A stretch of 9,685 nucleotides of DNA, taken from positions 1-9,685 of the IMG/VR virus record IMGVR_UViG_2737471850_000009; one strand, given 5' to 3'. Source of the stretch: a virus. Lineage: Duplodnaviria > Heunggongvirae > Uroviricota > Caudoviricetes. A program made the translations under genes and the position numbers. Below are positions 528 to 9,685 of this stretch, in pieces. How positions within the stretch are numbered: position 1 is the first letter of the stretch; each line of letters opens with the position of its first letter. A model generated the notes under the pieces. The model had not been told where the DNA came from and searched no databases. It worked only from the letters and a program-made list of their open reading frames with translations.

Positions 528-1799
528 TTAAGCCCCGTCATTGCGGGGCTCTTTGTTTGTTCCGAGGTCGGTAATGGGAACGTTCTGCGACTGGCGCGTC
601 GCCACATCACCGCCAGGCAAAGGCGGAAGATTATCCAGTCGCCGCACTTCGTTAACGGTACGGATCCCTGTATTAACCATGGTTTGCATGAAGGTAGCGC
701 GGCTCGCTGAGTCACCACGAAGCAGGCCATCAAGGTTATGCTCGGCGTGCAGCCTTCCCTGATCGGACTCTTTTACCAGCCAGCGCTCTATGCTGTACTC
801 CCAGCGATCGAGATAGGGCTTCAGGGTGTACTGGAGAAAGCCGAGGTTCTGCTGTTCAATGCCGCTGCCCCATGAAGTTGTTTTTTCAACATCACCAACC
901 AGGTGCGGCGGAACACCGTAAAAGCGCGCCAGCTCTGCCACCTGAAACTTACGGGCCTCAAGCATCTGTGCGTCCTGCGGCGAGATGCCTATCGGCTGCG
1001 TGGTGAACCCGCTCTCAATGATCCAGAGGCGTTTTCTCACCGGGCCGCCGGCAATCTCCTTAAAGTTTTCCTCCAGCTGTCCGCGCTGCTCTTTGGTCAG
1101 CACCTTGCCGTCAGTCATCAGGATTTGCGGTGATTTGGCGCCGTTGGCGAAAAACTCCCGCTGGTTATCTTCCATAGCAATAGCCACGCCTGCAGATTTG
1201 GCGCTGAACGCCAGCGGCGATAACCCGACCAGCCCGTTAAAGCCGAAGCCTTTCAGGTGGAATATTTCTTTCGGCTTAAAGTCCACATACTCGCTGTCGC
1301 GCCGGTACCGGTAGATGACATTTTTTCCATCGAGCCGGACATCCATATTCGCGCTCATCAGCGGAAGCAGGCTGATGACATCGCCGACGCTGTTTCGCTC
1401 CACATGCGCGTAGGCATTGCCGTAGGCGCAAAGCTGCATTGTCATTGCCTCGCGAAACTCCAGCGCGGTCATGAAGTTGTTGGGCCGGAAGCGAAGAAGC
1501 TTCGCCAGCGGGTTCTGGTTGTCGACTTTCTTTCGCTGATCATCGATGGTTTCAAAAACATCCAGCGGTAACGAGGCTGTTACGGTGGAGATGAGCCGGA
1601 TGCAGGCCCATACGGTGCTGATCGACATGTTGCGCTCATCGCTCACCACCGATTCCCCGACGGTGCCGTGAGCTGATGTGCCCGCCATCTGCGAGCCATT
1701 ATCCGGTGAAACCAGGCGGCCACCGGTCAGAATAGAGGCCATGCGCGCCCAGAATGGCGATCGCGTTCGCAGGTCAATGCTGTAATCGGTATCTGCCAT
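528..1799 (-). CDS. Phage portal protein, HK97 family
   Basis: 423-aa ORF with the length and sequence character of HK97-family portals. Its ATG lies 2 nt after the terL stop (tight coupling). Canonical position between terL and prohead protease. Confidence 0.9.
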   Translation of the reverse strand: MADTDYSIDLRTRSPFWARMASILTGGRLVSPDNGSQMAGTSAHGTVGESVVSDERNMSISTVWACIRLISTVTASLPLDVFETIDDQRKKVDNQNPLAKLLRFRPNNFMTALEFREAMTMQLCAYGNAYAHVERNSVGDVISLLPLMSANMDVRLDGKNVIYRYRRDSEYVDFKPKEIFHLKGFGFNGLVGLSPLAFSAKSAGVAIAMEDNQREFFANGAKSPQILMTDGKVLTKEQRGQLEENFKEIAGGPVRKRLWIIESGFTTQPIGISPQDAQMLEARKFQVAELARFYGVPPHLVGDVEKTTSWGSGIEQQNLGFLQYTLKPYLDRWEYSIERWLVKESDQGRLHAEHNLDGLLRGDSASRATFMQTMVNTGIRTVNEVRRLDNLPPLPGGDVATRQSQNVPITDLGTNKEPRNDGA

Positions 1800-1801
1800 T
1801 T

Positions 1802-3334
1802 TTAAACGCTCAAAAAGTTGTAAATGAAATCGTTAACGTCGCCCGGATCCTCCACCTCATCACTGGTCTGTGCGCCGATAGACATCGCCAGCGCCACCAT
1901 GCCGTCGATACGGCCGCTCGATTTGCCTTTCACAAACTTGCGGTTACCGGCGGGGTCGGTGATTACCGTGGCGTTTTTGGCGCACATCTCGAGGATCGGA
2001 TGGTTGCCGTGCTTCAGTTGCGCGCCGAGCAGTTTAGCTTCCAGCTCCCTGAGCGCAGGCGACATGGAGACAAAACCCTGGCCGAATTCCACGAACCGCT
2101 CGAGCTCCGCCTCAGTGAAACCGGCGTCGATGAGATGCGGGCGAAGGAAGCGCATGTTGTAGCGGTCGAACGCCAGCGCCCGGACGTTACAGATATCAAA
2201 AACGCGCCGCAGCTCCCGTGCAATAAAGGCGTACTCAATGGCTTTGCCCGGCGTCGTGTTCAGCCAGCCCTGCTTCGCCCATATGTCATAAGGCACGCGA
2301 TCGTTACGCGCCTTGTCCGCCAGCCCCTCTTCAGGTAGCCAGAACTTACAGTGCACATCGCCCTGCGTTGTGTTGAGCACCAGCGCGGTCAGGTCCGACA
2401 CGCTGGAAAGGTCCAGCCCGCCCCAGACGGTAGCGCCCGCCAGTTCGCCAGGCTCTTCTTTGTTCATGTGCCAGACGGTCTGGCTGACGAACGGGCTTTT
2501 CGCCTCAACCCTGCGGTTCAGTACAAGGTTCTCAAATTCAGCCTGGCGCGACGGGAGGCGCTTGGCGCTGGCGGCCATATCCAGCACTTCTTTCTGGTTC
2601 ATGAACACATCGAAGGCCGGGTTAGCCAGCCTGATGGCTTCGACAGAGAAAGGATCGATATCTTCCGGCGCGGTCTGCAGCCGTACCACCGTTCGCGGAT
2701 CGGCACCGGTCAGGCCATCATCAATCAGCAGGCTGAGCAGGTCGCTCGCATCGGGTGCCTGGGTGCTGATGATTACCGAGATAGGGTTGTCCTGAGCAGC
2801 GGTCGCGGTTTCCAGAGCTTCATAAAGCGGGTCACGCGGCCCGCGCACCTGGCCCAGCTCATCATGGGCGACAAATCGCGGCGAGAAACCGTAGGCCGTT
2901 GTGGCCTCAGCGCTCAACGCGCGATAGTAAGAGCCCAGTTCAGGGCAGTGAATCTCTTTGGCTGAATCTTTTATGGCAACGTATTGCATCAGTGTCGGAT
3001 TCATACGACACATTTTCGAAGCAAGGTTAAACAGAATTGCTGCCTGATCGCGTGATCGGGCTGCGGAATACAATTGTGAGTTAGGCGCTGATTCGGGACC
3101 AACCAGATAAAGCAGCATGATTATCGCTGTCTCTACCGTCTTGGCGTTCTTTCGCCCCCTGCTGATAATCGCGCGGCGAGTACCATGCTCATTATCAAAT
3201 ATTGCTCTGAAGTCATCCTTCATGAAAGGAGCCATCTTCAGAGGCTGGCCTACGTACTTCCCTTCAGGGATCAGGATGTGTTTCTCACACCAGGCTATAT
3301 TGCGCTCAGCCCTTGTAAGCTTTTTTTTCGCCAT
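1802..3334 (-). CDS. terL: Terminase large subunit (ATPase/nuclease)
   Basis: 510-aa ORF with an N-terminal P-loop-like segment (ISRGRKNAKT) and a DE acidic box (FVAHDELG), followed by a nuclease-like C-terminal half. Lies directly downstream of the small subunit gene and upstream of portal. Confidence 0.9.
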   Translation of the reverse strand: MAKKKLTRAERNIAWCEKHILIPEGKYVGQPLKMAPFMKDDFRAIFDNEHGTRRAIISRGRKNAKTVETAIIMLLYLVGPESAPNSQLYSAARSRDQAAILFNLASKMCRMNPTLMQYVAIKDSAKEIHCPELGSYYRALSAEATTAYGFSPRFVAHDELGQVRGPRDPLYEALETATAAQDNPISVIISTQAPDASDLLSLLIDDGLTGADPRTVVRLQTAPEDIDPFSVEAIRLANPAFDVFMNQKEVLDMAASAKRLPSRQAEFENLVLNRRVEAKSPFVSQTVWHMNKEEPGELAGATVWGGLDLSSVSDLTALVLNTTQGDVHCKFWLPEEGLADKARNDRVPYDIWAKQGWLNTTPGKAIEYAFIARELRRVFDICNVRALAFDRYNMRFLRPHLIDAGFTEAELERFVEFGQGFVSMSPALRELEAKLLGAQLKHGNHPILEMCAKNATVITDPAGNRKFVKGKSSGRIDGMVALAMSIGAQTSDEVEDPGDVNDFIYNFLSV

Positions 3335-3347
3335 TCGCTAATCAGCC

Positions 3348-3782
3348 TTAATCAATTTCCCAGGGCTTTTTCTCCCGAGCCAGATTGCTGTTGGCCCGGC
3401 CAACAGTTTTGGGATCGGCAGTAGCCTGGCGGGTAATCCGCAGGCGGGTCGCAAGAGAAGATGCCGATCGCACCTCGCGCTCGCGCATCGTGAGCAGCCT
3501 GTCGTAGCGCTTCAGCCCGTCTTCGCGGGACAACCACTCGAGCTCAAACTCTTCAATCTGGGTGGTGAGCAGCCGGGCCTGCACCACATGCCGACAGTAC
3601 ATCTCCAGCATGTCCCGGTGTGTTTCGGTGAATGAGCTGGCCGGGTTGTCATTAACCAGCCGGACCCAGACGTTAATCTCCGGATCGCTCAGGTGAATGG
3701 ACGGCTGCAACCTGCTTTCAGCCAGTGCCGGCAGCGAGACAGCAGACGTCGCAGCCAGAGACTTTCTGCCTCGCTGTGCCAT
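3348..3782 (-). CDS. terS: Terminase small subunit (P27-like)
   Basis: Start chosen at the internal ATG (MAQRGRKSL...) at 3782, preceded by AAGGA about 9 nt upstream. The 44 codons upstream in the track ORF run through a poly-C/AT-rich noncoding-looking tract. About 144 aa, basic N-terminus, immediately upstream of terL. Confidence 0.65.
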   Translation of the reverse strand: MAQRGRKSLAATSAVSLPALAESRLQPSIHLSDPEINVWVRLVNDNPASSFTETHRDMLEMYCRHVVQARLLTTQIEEFELEWLSREDGLKRYDRLLTMREREVRSASSLATRLRITRQATADPKTVGRANSNLAREKKPWEID

Positions 3783-3914
3783 CGCGTTTTTCCTTTTTTT
3801 CTGGACGTTTTTAAAAATAAAACTGGGAGCGCGGTCTTTAAGAATTTGGTACCAGAGTTTTACCCCTCCCCCTCCCTTACCAACATAAATATGAGAATTG
3901 ATATCATTTCTCAA

Positions 3915-4124
3915 TTACGTGTAAGCTTGAGTGAGGTATGCCAGAGGGCACCAGACGATCACCAACGCCGATTGGCAATGTGAGGGTAATGGTAGGGTAA
4001 TGGTAGGCAGCATCTCACCGACCTCATGATTGAAGGAGACTGCAGTGGCATGTTTAAAGCTCACGCTATCAATGCTCAACTCAATCAACTTCCCATCACG
4101 GTATTCAATCTTCATGTCTTGCAT
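3915..4124 (-). CDS. Hypothetical small protein (doubtful); may be non-coding cos region
   Basis: ATG at 4124 is preceded by AGGAG with a 6-nt spacer, directly after the HNH stop. The reading frame runs through the 11-bp tandem repeat (translated as PTITLPLP) and ends only at 3915, so the C-terminal half looks non-coding. Confidence 0.25.
   Translation of the reverse strand: MQDMKIEYRDGKLIELSIDSVSFKHATAVSFNHEVGEMLPTITLPLPSHCQSALVIVWCPLAYLTQAYT
3984..4005. repeat. Tandem direct repeat, 2 copies of the 11-bp unit GGGTAATGGTA (followed by GG)
   Basis: Read directly: GGGTAATGGTAGGGTAATGGTAGG. Candidate terminase small-subunit binding repeats (cosB-like), by position. Confidence 0.85.
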
Positions 4125-4136
4125 CAACTACTCCTG

Positions 4137-4427
4137 TTACCAGATAACACGGCCTTCATTATCGAACTCGGTGACCGTTCCGCCCTTCTCCATCCTCTGC
4201 TTTACCGAGTCGTGGCAACGTTTGCAAAGTGACTGAAGATTATCCGGATCATGAAAGAGCCTATCGTCTCCTTTGTGCGGGATGACATGGTCAACGATCG
4301 TTGCCGCTATCACCTGATTGCGCCGGAGGTGGAACTCACAAAGAGGTTGCTTCTGAAGCTGGTGATAGCGGAGTCGGTACCAACGCTTGGAATTGTAGAG
4401 GCTATGCCAAGGTGAATTGGATGCCAT
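4137..4427 (-). CDS. HNH endonuclease (terminase-associated, phage type)
   Basis: 96-aa ORF with a Cys pair and His/Asn signature (CEFH...N...H...CKRCH) typical of small phage HNH nucleases. GGGAG SD about 8 nt upstream of the ATG. Positioned just upstream of cos and terS as in HK97-like phages. Confidence 0.85.
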   Translation of the reverse strand: MASNSPWHSLYNSKRWYRLRYHQLQKQPLCEFHLRRNQVIAATIVDHVIPHKGDDRLFHDPDNLQSLCKRCHDSVKQRMEKGGTVTEFDNEGRVIW

Positions 4428-4504
4428 GGTTAATCTCCCTCTGCATTGCTAAATCGCCAATTCCGGCTAACGGCGTGCCCAGGCTCACAGCTGAAAGACT
4501 TTCT

Positions 4505-4534
4505 TTGAAGTGCGCGTGAGATGCGCTTTATACT
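4505..4534 (+). promoter_or_regulatory. Putative sigma70-type promoter for the YkgJ-like gene
   Basis: TTGAAG (4505-4510), 18-nt spacer, TATACT (4529-4534), about 95 nt upstream of the ATG at 4630. Sequence-only prediction. Confidence 0.3.
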
Positions 4535-4629
4535 CCAGCAATAGCCGCCAGCAATGCCAGTAAGTATCAAATTACAAAATTATCTTTGTTCATTTTGTTG
4601 AGTGACACCTCAAAAAGGAGGCATGGGAA

Positions 4630-5163
4630 ATGAGTCTGGAAAAATTGCTAATCAAAGATAGAAAATGTGGTTCATGTTCTGTTTGTTGTAAATCCCTGAG
4701 AATCGAAGAGCCAGAGCTTAAAAAATTTGCTGGAGTGCCATGTCAGCATCTTAAAGCACAGGGCGGATGTTCGATTTATAATGATCGCCCATCTCTATGT
4801 CGTACGTGGTACTGCGGATGGAGAGTTTTAGGTATCGGTCCGGAAATGAGGCCTGATCGTTGTGGTGTTCTTATTCGCTTCGATGGCAAAGCTCTGTGCT
4901 TTCAGCCAGTAAATGATGGTCAAGTTACTACATTGCTTGATCCAGAGCCTTTACGTGTTTTAAGCAGTTCAATTGCAAATGGGATGACCGTTCAGATTTC
5001 GATTCCGACAAAAGAAGGCTTTTGCTCTTCAAATGTCGACGTTACAGCAGCTATGACCGAGGTAGTTAAAACCAGAGAGTTTGATAAGATTCGTGCAACT
5101 ATGATTGGATTAATTCAATTCGCTGCGAATTCGAAGACAGACCCGATTGCTCCTTTAAATTAG
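4630..5163 (+). CDS. YkgJ-family cysteine-cluster protein (CxxCxxCC putative Zn/Fe-chelating domain, UPF0153-like)
   Basis: 177-aa ORF with AAGGAGG SD 9 nt upstream. Carries CGSCSVCC (CxxCxxCC) and later GGCSIYNDRPSLCRTWYC, matching the two hallmark segments of the YkgJ/CxxCxxCC family. Opposite strand to all flanking phage genes and visibly AT-richer (sampled stretches roughly 32-43% GC versus the clearly GC-richer late genes). Confidence 0.75.
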   Translation: MSLEKLLIKDRKCGSCSVCCKSLRIEEPELKKFAGVPCQHLKAQGGCSIYNDRPSLCRTWYCGWRVLGIGPEMRPDRCGVLIRFDGKALCFQPVNDGQVTTLLDPEPLRVLSSSIANGMTVQISIPTKEGFCSSNVDVTAAMTEVVKTREFDKIRATMIGLIQFAANSKTDPIAPLN

Positions 5164-7246: not shown

Positions 7247-7330
7247 TAAGCCCCCTCTTATTGCTGTGAGTCCTCTCAGAACGAGGGGAAAATAAAAAGG
7301 GCCACCAATTGGCAGCCCTCAAAACGCAAA

Positions 7331-7360
7331 AACCCGCACGATGGCGGGTTTCTTTTTGTT
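7331..7360. terminator. Intrinsic terminator (tR'-like), apparently bidirectional
   Basis: AACCCGC-ACGATG-GCGGGTT, a 7-bp stem, followed by TCTTTTTGTT on the plus strand and preceded by AAAACGCAAAA (a T-run on the minus strand). Lies between Q and the holin gene. Confidence 0.6.
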
Positions 7361-7399
7361 CTGTTGCTCAGTTCGCTTTAACGTCCCGAGCCTACCACA

Positions 7400-7428
7400 A
7401 TTTAAGCACTTTCTTGCTCACTCTGCAA
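7400..7428 (-). promoter_or_regulatory. Candidate late promoter (PR'-like) overlapping the 3' end of Q
   Basis: Minus strand reads TTGCAG, 17 nt, TTAAAT. The -10 overlaps the Q stop codon. The terminator lies about 40-60 nt downstream, giving the short leader typical of Q-dependent late promoters. Confidence 0.35.
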
Positions 7429-7980
7429 CTTAAATCTGTCGCTATTTGTGCCGAATGCGTCACAAACTGGAGCGTACAGGATCGATTCTGCTAGACTTAG
7501 CCAAGTGTCAATGCGACGACGGCAGGTGATCAGCGGCCAATCAGGGTGTTTAGCCTGCAGTTCATTGGCCATCTGCAACTTACTCTTACGTAGGCGATGG
7601 CGGTCGACAATCACGCTATAGAGCGATCGGTAGTCATCATTCATCAGTACAGAAGCAATGACTCCGTCAACTAACAACCCTTCTTCGTCTGAACAGAACG
7701 CCAGACCGCTTTTATTTTTGCTGTTGAGGATTTCACGCAGGTACGCTTCAAGTTCAGGCTTGGTGATACCTGATTTCTTCATGCGGCGCAGAGCATCATT
7801 GATAGCTGTCTTGGTGATTTTCCCGGATGCCAGAAGCTGGTTAAACATGTTCCCACCACTACCGCCGCCGATATAAGACCAGCGGCCCCACATGCGCAAC
7901 TTACCCTGTATCCAGATGCTTTCCAGAGTACGAAGACGAACCATTTCACCAGATTTACCAACTTCAGAAGGATTAATCAT
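7402..7980 (-). CDS. Late-gene antiterminator Q (phage 82 / QuuD-like family)
   Basis: 192-aa ORF with GGAGAA SD upstream. Segments RMWGRW and CSDEEGLLVDG...YSVIVD resemble the ERWGAW and Cys/Asp-rich blocks I recall from 82-type Q proteins. Position immediately upstream of promoter, terminator and lysis genes supports the call. Confidence 0.65.
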   Translation of the reverse strand: MINPSEVGKSGEMVRLRTLESIWIQGKLRMWGRWSYIGGGSGGNMFNQLLASGKITKTAINDALRRMKKSGITKPELEAYLREILNSKNKSGLAFCSDEEGLLVDGVIASVLMNDDYRSLYSVIVDRHRLRKSKLQMANELQAKHPDWPLITCRRRIDTWLSLAESILYAPVCDAFGTNSDRFKLQSEQESA

Positions 7981-7994
7981 TTAGCGTTCTCCAC

Positions 7995-8318
7995 TTACGC
8001 CAGTACGCCGATTGCCAGCGCACGATCTATAACCCGAAACATCAGGACCATCTGGTCACCGTATTTCGCTTCAAATGCCACAGGATCAGCATGCAACTCG
8101 TCGTGATGCTCTCTGCACAGAGGAATCACAAACAGGTCGTGTGCCTTTGTACCCATTCCACCCTGCCCGTGGCCAATCAGGTGGTGGGGGTCGTCAGCTT
8201 GCTTGTTACAGCAGACGCACAGCTGGGCCTTAACCCATCTCGTGTATTTCTCATTCACCCAGCGACGACGCTTGGGTTTAAGCATGAAGGATTCCGGTGT
8301 CTCCGGGTCTACCTTCAT
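7995..8318 (-). CDS. HNH-motif protein of nin-region type (DUF968 / Ref-like putative nuclease)
   Basis: CVCCNKQADDPHHLIGHGQGG...CREHHDELH shows a Cys pair plus paired His motifs. Sits immediately upstream of Q, as nin-region genes do in lambdoid phages. Start uncertain: GTG at 8324 (track), ATG at 8318, or ATG at 8285. Confidence 0.5.
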   Translation of the reverse strand: MKVDPETPESFMLKPKRRRWVNEKYTRWVKAQLCVCCNKQADDPHHLIGHGQGGMGTKAHDLFVIPLCREHHDELHADPVAFEAKYGDQMVLMFRVIDRALAIGVLA

Positions 8319-8790
8319 CGCCACTATCTTTTTCGCTTTCTCCTGTACCTTCGCTTATGCGGTTCAGGTTGCTGTTTTAGAAATTCGCGAAGCCCGTTGT
8401 AAGTACAAAGAACTGCAATCACAAAACGCAGACATGGCAGTACAGCTCGCTAACGCCGAGAGCAAGTGCAGGGAGCTGGCGTTGGAGAATGCATACATCC
8501 GCAACCGGTACAAAGAACTGGACTTGTTAATCGGGAAAAACATCCTGGTCATGCAGGCAGCGATTATCGAATGGCAGGCAACTGGCGACGCTAAGAACGG
8601 GCTGTCATGGATTTATAACACCCTGTTTGGGCCTAGTGAATTGCCTGACGAATCTGAGAAAGATGCTCAGGCCTACTTTGACCGCAAATATGCACCGATT
8701 AACGAAGAGTTGATGGCACTTCACAAGTGGTTTTGGGAACAAAGTGAAGTTGAACGTGCCGCCGCTGGCATTGGCGTGAAGGGGGAGTGA
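8284..8790 (+). CDS. Hypothetical protein: N-terminal hydrophobic helix plus coiled-coil-like region
   Basis: First ATG of the track ORF (which begins at a TTG at 8203). MKDSGVSGSTFIATIFFAFSCTFAYAVQVAVL is followed by heptad-like KYKELQSQNADMAVQLANAESKCRELALENAYIRNRYKELD. The antisense frames look like junk. No family recognised. Its 5' end overlaps the 5' end of the divergent DUF968-like gene. Confidence 0.5.
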   Translation: MKDSGVSGSTFIATIFFAFSCTFAYAVQVAVLEIREARCKYKELQSQNADMAVQLANAESKCRELALENAYIRNRYKELDLLIGKNILVMQAAIIEWQATGDAKNGLSWIYNTLFGPSELPDESEKDAQAYFDRKYAPINEELMALHKWFWEQSEVERAAAGIGVKGE

Positions 8791-8791
8791 G

Positions 8792-8965
8792 ATGGCAGAA
8801 CGCTGGAAGATTCTCCTGCTAATAGCATTTATTTTTTTGACGGTCATTCCAGTAAGCATGGTGGCCGTGAAGGTTTATGTGTCTCCATGGCTGCTAATTG
8901 CAGGTCATGCAGGCGCAATGCTTTTCGGTTTTATATGCGCTGAGCTCGCGCGGAAGGATTACTAA
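8792..8965 (+). CDS. Small hydrophobic protein (57 aa, two predicted TM helices)
   Basis: Not in the ORF track (under 60 aa). ATG 8792 preceded by GGGGGAG. Translation MAERWKILLLIAFIFLTVIPVSMVAVKVYVSPWLLIAGHAGAMLFGFICAELARKDY. The stop lies 3 nt before the recombinase ATG, in the same frame. Confidence 0.4.
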   Translation: MAERWKILLLIAFIFLTVIPVSMVAVKVYVSPWLLIAGHAGAMLFGFICAELARKDY

Positions 8966-8968
8966 CCC

Positions 8969-9685
8969 ATGACAACTAACAACCACCCGGCGAACGGTCC
9001 TGTATCACTCGATCGGCTGCACCAGATACGCGAAATACTCAGCAAAGCAGCAGCACAAAGCGACGGCGGTAATCTCGGCTACGCAATGGCTGATGCTGTG
9101 AAGGTGATTGATGGGGCAATTGCTGAGTTTGGTAACCCATGCGTAGGCGTCGATAAATACCCTAAACCTCAGCGCGACCGATACATTACGGATGAAGAGT
9201 ATTTAGCAATTTATGACTGTGCTACTGATCCGGTAAAAGCCGCAATGGAAATTGCTTATCTCTGTGCAGCGAGGGTTTCCGATGTTCTGAAAATGGACTG
9301 GAATCAGATAATGGATAAAGGAATTTTCATTCAACAGGGTAAAACTGGAGTTAAGCAGATTAAAGCGTGGACAGACCGCTTGCACTCCGCTGTCAATCTT
9401 TGCAGGAAATCAGGGGAAGATGGCGCTGTCATCAAAACCATGTACGGAGAGCGATATTCCTATAAAGGTTTCAATGAAGCCTGGAGAAAGGCTAGGAATG
9501 CGGCTGCTGAAAAAATTGGCAGACCGTTAGACTGCACGTTCCATGATCTGAAGGCGAAAGGCATTTCTGACTATGAAGGAAGTGGCCGTGATAAGCAAAA
9601 ATTCAGTGGTCACAAAACTGAATCACAGGTGTTGGTATACGACAGGAAAGTAAAAATTAGCCCAACTTTAAACAGAAAAATGTGA
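8969..9685 (+). CDS. Tyrosine recombinase, lambda-Int-like catalytic domain only (arm-binding domain absent)
   Basis: 238 aa. Aligns by eye to the C-terminal ~250 residues of lambda Int (RYITDEEYLAIY...ARVSDVLKMDW...QQGKTGVK...TFHDLK...GHKTESQVLVYDR versus lambda LTADEYLKIY...QRVGDLCEMKW...SKTGVK...TFHELR...GHKSDTMASQYRD). The catalytic Arg-I, Lys, His and Tyr are present, but Arg-II is Lys. Ends with a stop at the window edge. Confidence 0.8.
   Translation: MTTNNHPANGPVSLDRLHQIREILSKAAAQSDGGNLGYAMADAVKVIDGAIAEFGNPCVGVDKYPKPQRDRYITDEEYLAIYDCATDPVKAAMEIAYLCAARVSDVLKMDWNQIMDKGIFIQQGKTGVKQIKAWTDRLHSAVNLCRKSGEDGAVIKTMYGERYSYKGFNEAWRKARNAAAEKIGRPLDCTFHDLKAKGISDYEGSGRDKQKFSGHKTESQVLVYDRKVKISPTLNRKM

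Follow-up and report, generated by a model that had tools for sequence, protein, structure and literature searches.

A membrane-protein-like gene pair beside a short recombinase in a decayed lambdoid prophage of Escherichia coli, very probably shaped by two deletions

Introduction

Several cryptic lambdoid prophages of Escherichia coli, such as DLP12, Rac and Qin, have lost their immunity, replication and recombination regions by deletion, keep late genes, carry truncated or fused genes at the deletion scars and lie adjacent to a tRNA attachment site. Other phages encode membrane proteins that belong to exclusion systems, for instance SieA and SieB of P22, RexB of lambda and Imm of T4. Here, we analysed positions 8284-8965 of the IMG/VR record IMGVR_UViG_2737471850_000009, in which open reading frames (ORFs) of 168 and 57 codons precede a 238-aa ORF with the appearance of a short recombinase. 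The whole 9,685-nt stretch is referred to as the window, and coordinates refer to it unless a locus label is given. An earlier note had described the products of the first two ORFs as a coiled-coil protein with a membrane anchor and as a small membrane protein, and had interpreted them either as a superinfection-exclusion or abortive-infection cassette or as remnants of the pL-operon region between int and N. Our results partly confirm the observation and partly support the interpretation: the interval is very probably the left-arm stump of a defective lambdoid E. coli prophage at tRNA-Ser(CGA) that was shaped by two deletions.

The element shares with DLP12, Rac and Qin the loss of the immunity, replication and recombination regions by deletion, the retained late genes, the truncated or fused genes at the scars and the adjacent tRNA attachment site. 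It is, however, a different element at a different site, which lies near mtfA by comparison with E. coli CUWW10 (L003), and it was seen in one rare lineage only.

The closest described relatives of the 168-aa product are the Ea22 proteins of lambda and of Stx phages, which favour lysogeny; in these proteins, a short segment at the N-terminus is followed by a long coiled coil, and the C-terminal domain is exchangeable (PMC7093339; PMC10834534). The C-terminal domain of lambda Ea22 alone fails to reproduce the activity of the full protein (PMC10834534). Over its 3' two-thirds, from about residue 40 onwards, the 168-aa ORF shares 63-95% identity with ead/Ea22-like proteins, including those of the Stx phages BP-4795 and Stx2-phage 86. 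The ORF also resembles the Ea22 genes in its position and orientation (upstream of int and co-oriented with it, in the early-left operon) and in its mosaic of coiled coil and exchangeable C-terminal domain (PMC10834534). Unlike these genes, it retains neither the N-terminal segment nor the greater part of the coiled coil, which carry the Ead_Ea22 signature (PF13935), and is fused to antisense sequence of a DUF968 gene. Its C-terminal domain is furthermore not the solved domain of lambda Ea22, and a sequence search of the PDB with the ORF returned only noise (E = 0.79).

Results

The 168-aa ORF joins antisense DUF968 sequence to an Ea22-like tail

The 168-aa ORF is an accidental chimera and not a natural gene with a membrane anchor. 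At the DNA level, window 7328-8349 was aligned to the E. coli TST3 prophage (L001), where it corresponds to DUF1133 and DUF968; the intact DUF968 gene of TST3 comprises 990 bp (L001 3096-4085). This alignment ends at L001 3450, which equals window 8349: the two sequences are identical up to ...TCTCCTGTACC and unrelated from the very next base, 8350. The start codon at 8284 and codons 1-22 of the ORF are therefore antisense DUF968 sequence. Read on its own strand, the DUF968 remnant matches Pfam DUF968 (PF06147, 2.6e-58) only over profile positions 67-171 of 171 and phrog_96 only over positions 227-334 of 334. It is not a complete gene, as about 117 of 329 codons are left.

The remainder of the ORF is a fragment of an Ead/Ea22-like family member and not a complete member. 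Profile searches matched phrog_18739 (1e-55, profile positions 290-414 of 416, from ORF residue 43) and phrog_250 (6.5e-40, profile positions 201-320 of 367, from ORF residue 22). Furthermore, 3561 homologues were found (E <= 1e-5), which are mostly named ead/Ea22-like and many of which carry a precomputed PF13935 assignment. The earlier note had recognised neither family; the 168-aa product has clear homology to a known phage family, and the 57-aa product belongs to phrog_4918. The alignment to the 3561 proteins begins only at ORF residue ~26-40, whereas residues 68-168 are nearly invariant in an alignment of twelve sequences (A1). On the DNA level, the Ea22-like gene of an intact E. coli prophage (L002) shares 93.5% identity with window 8485-8794 over its last 306 bp. 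The N-terminal Ead_Ea22 domain, which is present in the full-length relatives of L002 (5.8e-20), PH444 (5.9e-14) and ST11-VIM1phi8.1 (2.3e-18), is absent from the ORF, for which a Pfam scan gave no family at E <= 1. Its N-terminus is shared with none of the 3561 homologues, except for a second record of the same fusion (P0002, 99% identical). AlphaFold2 modelled the C-terminal part, with 45 homologues, as all helical at a predicted local distance difference test score (pLDDT) of 59, and NCBIfam and Pfam scans of the 168- and 57-aa ORFs gave nothing meaningful.

The hydrophobic stretch described in the earlier note does exist: the ORF contains a single one, at residues 14-32, with a Kyte-Doolittle 19-residue mean of 1.83. 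It is, however, no natural anchor. Since the stretch (TIFFAFSCT/FAYAVQVAVL) straddles the junction between residues 22 and 23, the hydrophobic N-terminus is a by-product of the fusion. No Shine-Dalgarno sequence was detected before the ATG at 8284; the 57- and 238-aa ORFs each have one.

One may ask whether the accidental fusion has gained a function, in that the chimera is expressed and its new hydrophobic N-terminus anchors the Ea22 portion, with its coiled coil and C-terminal domain, in the inner membrane. The 168 open codons with an ATG, the near-transmembrane length of the hydrophobic stretch and the fact that the fusion was kept in three samples with one amino-acid difference (A37T) would fit this idea. 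Nevertheless, we consider it very improbable, as the ORF has neither a Shine-Dalgarno sequence nor a promoter-like site and its hydrophobicity is marginal, with Ser, Thr and Cys within the stretch. The three samples are 99.9-99.99% identical, which makes persistence a matter of recent common descent and not of selection. In addition, because the pro-lysogenic activity needs more than the C-terminal domain (PMC10834534), the Ea22 function of the fragment is probably lost.

Relatives of the Ea22-like part occur in nin regions, too. In the Citrobacter prophages L007-L011, positions 8001-8399 encode a 132-aa form consisting of an Ea22-like coiled coil and C-terminal domain, which lies past the replication genes in the nin region, directly ahead of a DNA methyltransferase gene. 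The same Ea22-like module therefore serves both early operons of different phages.

The 238-aa ORF is an integrase fusion at the attL end

The 238-aa "recombinase" begins with 53 codons from an unrelated hypothetical gene, to which the last ~185 codons of an integrase gene are fused in frame. Window 8967-9130 is 92% identical on the DNA level to L002 4575-4735, the start of a 178-aa coding sequence (4577-5113) that comes after the Ea22 region in that prophage. In line with this, phrog_6144 matches residues 1-43 of the ORF, and a protein alignment (A4) concurs. Window 9131-9685 is 97% identical to L003 4001-4555, which represents the last 555 bp of the integrase coding sequence of CUWW10 (3566-4555). 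A three-way DNA alignment of the window, L002 and L003 places the switch of parents between GCTGAGTTT and GGTAACCCATGC. The fusion product keeps the catalytic domain (Pfam Phage_integrase, PF00589, 1.6e-11, residues 72-226), and its tail is identical to integrase residues ~145-329 in A4. The native N-terminal part, residues 1-~145, is absent and replaced by the 53 unrelated residues; in lambda Int, the counterpart of this part carries the arm-binding domain and much of the core-binding domain.

Within the integrase part, window 9545-9565 (FHDLKAKG) shows a lysine (HDLK) at the place where tyrosine recombinases usually have the second catalytic arginine, in the H-x-x-R box, as does the L003 integrase; this was read by eye and the register may be wrong.

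Two longer contigs, L005 and L006, contain the window sequence. In both, the sequence past the integrase stop codon, a spacer and the 3' end of tRNA-Ser(CGA), is the same as in CUWW10, where this tRNA gene adjoins mtfA. The integrase/tRNA-Ser(CGA) end is the attL end of the prophage.

Two deletions as the probable origin of the layout

The maps of two intact related prophages allow the junctions to be read as deletion scars. In TST3, the order is att, int, a xis-like gene, small genes, the Ea22-like gene, more small genes, ParB, repressor and cro, and to the right of cro replication genes, methylase, RusA, antirepressor, DUF968 and Q. About 9.5 kb separate the Ea22-like gene from DUF968, and transcription runs toward int on the left side of the repressor and toward Q on its right side. 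Given these directions, a deletion from the Ea22-like gene to DUF968 leaves two 3' fragments with their tails pointing outward, as seen in the window. We propose that a first deletion of roughly 10 kb, judged by analogy with such maps, ran from inside the Ea22-like early-left gene to inside the DUF968 nin-region gene. It would have removed the recombination, immunity (repressor, cro, pL, pR) and replication genes together with most nin genes. The 3' parts of both genes would have been joined back to back at 8349/8350, and both could be kept because the two genes are divergently transcribed. The antisense strand of the DUF968 remnant is by chance open and offers an ATG, which would have created the 168-aa chimeric ORF.

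In L002, the Ea22-like gene is followed by a small gene, the 178-aa hypothetical gene, further genes, the exonuclease gene, the xis-like gene, int and the chromosome. The fragments in the window show the order and orientation of these int-proximal early-left genes. A second, in-frame deletion, which by analogy with L002 would comprise roughly 2 kb, very probably fused the start of the hypothetical gene to the integrase catalytic domain. Presumably, it removed the rest of the 178-aa gene, small genes, the 3'-5' exonuclease gene, the xis-like gene and the 5' part of int. The alternative offered by the earlier note, remnants of the pL-operon region between int and N, is thus borne out, as the Ea22-like fragment, the 57-aa gene and the 5' end of the hypothetical gene are ordered as in L002.

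As short-read contigs can mis-join at repeats, we considered whether the junctions are assembly chimeras, for which nothing else speaks. The same 9.7-kb sequence with both junctions occurs in assemblies of separate read sets (ERR3333579 and SRR8095548), which are 99.9% and 99.99% identical to the window. The same scars in three independent assemblies argue that this is no assembly error. Moreover, the 168-aa product is also found in NCBI nr and a repeat search revealed no repeats at either junction, so that the probability of an artefact is practically negligible.

The element is rare. In a search of 5426 complete E. coli genomes, no genome had a single locus matching 80% or more of 7900-9685, and among about 15 billion proteins the 238-aa product forms a singleton cluster on 3 contigs. 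The three ORFs are hence not conserved together.

The closest relatives of the three segments are located in different E. coli prophages (TST3 at tRNA-Leu, L002 beside yejO and L003 at tRNA-Ser), whose integrases and attachment sites differ. Mosaicism is pronounced among lambdoid phages, and the exchange of the 57-aa module relative to L002 follows gene boundaries exactly. The junctions could therefore have arisen by recombination between two or more resident prophages, each arm having a different parent. We regard this as unlikely, since the orientation of every fragment is the one predicted from internal deletions of the standard lambdoid map and mosaicism of the parent phage alone accounts for the differing best matches. 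The outcome would be identical either way, a dead chimeric stump.

The consequences for expression were assessed with a sigma-70-like promoter scan of 7300-9685, a crude consensus search and as such a weak negative, which gave 0 sites compared to 2.8 expected by chance. Q is normally transcribed from pR. As pL, pR and N are absent and no promoter-like site was seen, there is probably little or no transcription of the stump. The 168-aa chimera and the integrase fusion are probably non-functional relics, and the element, which appears to have lost pR, should be able neither to excise by its own integrase nor to replicate. The 57-aa gene, although intact, is probably poorly expressed at this locus.

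Several points weigh against an origin by two deletions followed by silencing. The search gave no single intact parent phage with all three parental segments, which makes one deletion per junction the most parsimonious reading and not a demonstrated one. The DNA of 8350-8400, directly right of the first junction, has no match in E. coli genomes, phages or viral, genome or metagenome contigs. As a consequence, the exact Ea22-side breakpoint and any microhomology cannot be stated. Weak or non-sigma-70 promoters, or read-through, could escape the promoter scan. NCBI annotates the 168-aa ORF as an ead/Ea22-like family protein (WP_244462337.1) and does not flag a chimera. Finally, the 57-aa gene differs from its closest relative by 3 non-synonymous and 1 synonymous substitutions, which are too few to judge current selection.

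The search for the Ea22-side parent of 8350-8430 comprised blastn in distant mode, exact-pattern contig scans and a protein-guided scan. In the latter, which covered representative genomes, 8350-8400 gave no match and the best hits began at ORF residue ~40. Only the profile alignment to phrog_250 (from residue 22) and one tblastn match (from residue 26) enter this stretch. It is in frame with the Ea22-like part and reads like coiled coil, and a 13-nt YKEL-coding repeat at 8403 recurs at 8508, inside the coiled coil. Judged by its sequence, 8350-8400 probably stems from an unsampled Ea22 variant.

The 57-aa gene is intact and accompanies Ea22-like genes

The 57-aa ORF is a real gene and the sole intact one of the three ORFs. 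Its product matches phrog_4918 at 1.1e-22 (residues 1-54 against profile positions 2-55 of 59). In total, 15 homologous clusters from Citrobacter, Salmonella and E. coli were found, all of 57-58 aa, and ten Klebsiella phage records carry copies that are 61-69% identical. The protein resembles the other members of phrog_4918, which occur in temperate enterobacterial prophages and Klebsiella phages, in all respects. Residues R4, P20, W33, G38-H39, G41, G46-F47 and C49-A50-E51-L52 are invariant among the homologues, and pairwise dN/dS values range from 0.05 to 0.39 wherever substitutions suffice, which indicates that the family is under purifying selection.

The earlier description as a two-helix membrane protein holds. 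Two hydrophobic segments cover residues 4-32 (peak 2.83 at 7-25) and 32-53, and AlphaFold2 predicted a helical hairpin (H4-25 and H32-56, pLDDT 77). The invariant polar residues His39, Cys49 and Glu51 fall within the second predicted helix. According to the model, the protein would form a two-helix inner-membrane hairpin. A fold search of this hairpin against viral structures gave generic hairpins only (best E = 3.2).

A strong ribosome-binding site, AAGGGGGAG, precedes the gene. A single base separates its start codon from the upstream stop codon (TGAGATG), which indicates translational coupling to the upstream ORF. It is found directly behind an Ea22-like gene in 10 of the 11 enterobacterial loci and in three Klebsiella phages. 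These sites are either the int-proximal early-left region or the nin region past the replication genes, and a DUF551 protein is often encoded right after it. The swap of the 57-aa module relative to L002 runs precisely from the Ea22-like stop codon to the start of the following gene, and in this slot L002 holds an unrelated soluble 90-aa protein.

We also considered whether the 57-aa gene always accompanies the C-terminal domain seen here. This was rejected, because the upstream domains differ among loci, and the domain in the window is another one than in the other phrog_4918 loci examined. Only the last codons of the upstream genes (..AAGIGVKGE), which contain the ribosome-binding site, are common among the loci. 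At window 8755-8794 and near 3985-4003 of L015-L025, unrelated Ea22-like C-terminal domains end in ..AAGIG(V)KGE followed by a stop codon. From the sequences, this end looks like a conserved module boundary at which early-region genes are exchanged. In one Citrobacter contig (L019), a 187-aa Ea22-like ORF with a GTG start (3438-4001) lies directly upstream of the 57-aa gene but is uncalled in the public gene set.

No support for a defence cassette

A genuine moron cassette would pair a membrane-anchored coiled-coil protein with a small membrane protein; the two would act together in superinfection exclusion or abortive infection and be expressed with the short recombinase. Hydrophobic segments are present in both ORFs, the three ORFs are co-oriented and closely packed, and the 57-aa gene is an intact member of a conserved family. 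Furthermore, the PADLOC model PDLC02890, named "DpdH" (127 positions), matched residues 57-154 of the 168-aa ORF (window 8452-8745) at 2.4e-34.

This model, however, matches ordinary Ea22-like proteins from Stx-type phages, PH444 and Citrobacter prophages equally well, at about 1e-36. Canonical DpdH/DpdI is described as BrxC-like (preprint 10.1101/2025.09.15.676423). No other Dpd component was recognised among the ORFs of the window or in 10 kb on the late-gene side of L005, where phage functions are encoded. Based on the unspecific match and the lack of any other Dpd gene, the DpdH identity of the 168-aa ORF was rejected, and the label says nothing on this locus. The 57- and 238-aa proteins had no PADLOC match. 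Matches to PDLC02890 were also seen at L002 3653-4303 and L004 2884-3495, with an overall range of 1e-34 to 1e-37.

The remaining evidence points in the same direction. The presumed anchor derives from a junction and from the reverse strand of a truncated DUF968 gene, the N-terminus of the 168-aa ORF is unique apart from the same fusion, and the trio is confined to one rare lineage. The interval also shows no sign of an own promoter or terminator: its GC content does not differ from that of the flanks, and the promoter scan was negative within its limits. We therefore consider a moron cassette highly improbable, and this reading of the earlier note is not supported.

The 57-aa protein bears a general likeness to SieA/SieB, RexB and Imm in being a small hydrophobic phage protein encoded in an accessory region. 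It differs from them in that it has no sequence or profile similarity to these proteins, PADLOC giving no match, and its fold resembles generic hairpins. Moreover, in live phages the 57-aa gene sits within early operons and is not autonomously expressed in the lysogen.

Gene order of the window

The window corresponds to the right-hand portion of a lambdoid prophage in reverse orientation (Table 1). Judged from the longer contig L005, the late region appears complete from the capsid gene to Q. As had been described, the three ORFs on the + strand are tightly spaced, being 1 and 3 nt apart, and run opposite to the late operon, which occupies the - strand. An Rfam scan of the window found no RNA family.

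Table 1 Features of the window. The table indicates the feature, its position in the window, the strand and additional remarks.
Feature	Position	Strand	Remarks
Portal	528-1799	-	
Large terminase	1802-3334	-	
Small terminase, then HNH gene	beyond large terminase	-	
Lysis cassette	after HNH gene	-	spanin-like ORFs, glycoside hydrolase 19 endolysin, two holins
Q-like antiterminator (DUF1133)	7402-7980	-	
109-codon ORF with DUF968 match	7995-8324	-	
3' remnant of DUF968/HNH-type nin-region gene	7995-8349	-	stop codon and last ~117 of ~329 codons
168-aa ORF	8284-8790	+	ATG start
Codons 1-22 of 168-aa ORF	8284-8349	+	antisense of DUF968 remnant, non-native coding
Probable deletion junction 1	8349-8350		DUF968 3' part (-) meets early-left (Ea22-side) sequence (+)
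~51 nt in frame with Ea22-like part	8350-8400	+	coiled coil of unsampled Ea22 variant or junction filler
3' part of Ea22-like early gene	8401-8790	+	coiled-coil end and conserved C-terminal domain, residues ~40-168
Intact gene of 57-aa small membrane protein	8792-8965	+	ATG start, phrog_4918
238-aa ORF, "short recombinase"	8969-9685	+	fusion product
First 53 codons of ~178-aa hypothetical early-left gene	8969-9127	+	phrog_6144 type
Probable deletion junction 2	9127-9131		in-frame fusion, placeable to within about 4 nt
Last ~185 codons and stop of 329-aa tyrosine integrase	9128-9685	+	catalytic domain

A further ORF of 177 codons, rich in Cys, is located at 4630-5163 on the + strand, opposite to the late operon and between the HNH gene and the lysis cassette. 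It lies in a stretch of low GC content (~43-45% compared to 50-60% in the flanks), reaches 22.5 bits for Pfam CxxCxxCC (PF03692; cutoff 23 bits) and matches phrog_9155 at 1.4e-16. This ORF has the appearance of an inserted moron and is more plausible than the interval 8284-8965 as an autonomous accessory gene.

Discussion

The interval is an ordinary decayed prophage arm, and nothing supports a defence function. What remains to be considered is the 57-aa gene. As it is nearly always coupled to an Ea22-like gene, whatever the C-terminal domain of the latter, it may be speculated that its product is a dedicated early-gene partner of Ea22-like proteins, which would mediate or modulate the pro-lysogenic effect at the membrane or exclude superinfecting phage; its intact survival in the stump could then reflect retention by the host. 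We regard this as a rather improbable scenario. In a weaker variant, the accidental hydrophobic N-terminus may make the Ea22 fragment a new membrane-tethered protein.

For the annotation of prophages, the locus calls for caution: an ORF with a transmembrane helix and a coiled coil beside a "short recombinase" mimics a defence cassette, while both are fusions that very probably result from deletions. Similarly, PDLC02890 recognises the ordinary Ea22-like C-terminal domain and may yield false defence calls in prophages. With regard to the biology of lambdoid phages, the fixed place of the 57-aa family behind Ea22-like genes offers a modest lead for studies of the lambda exo-xis region.

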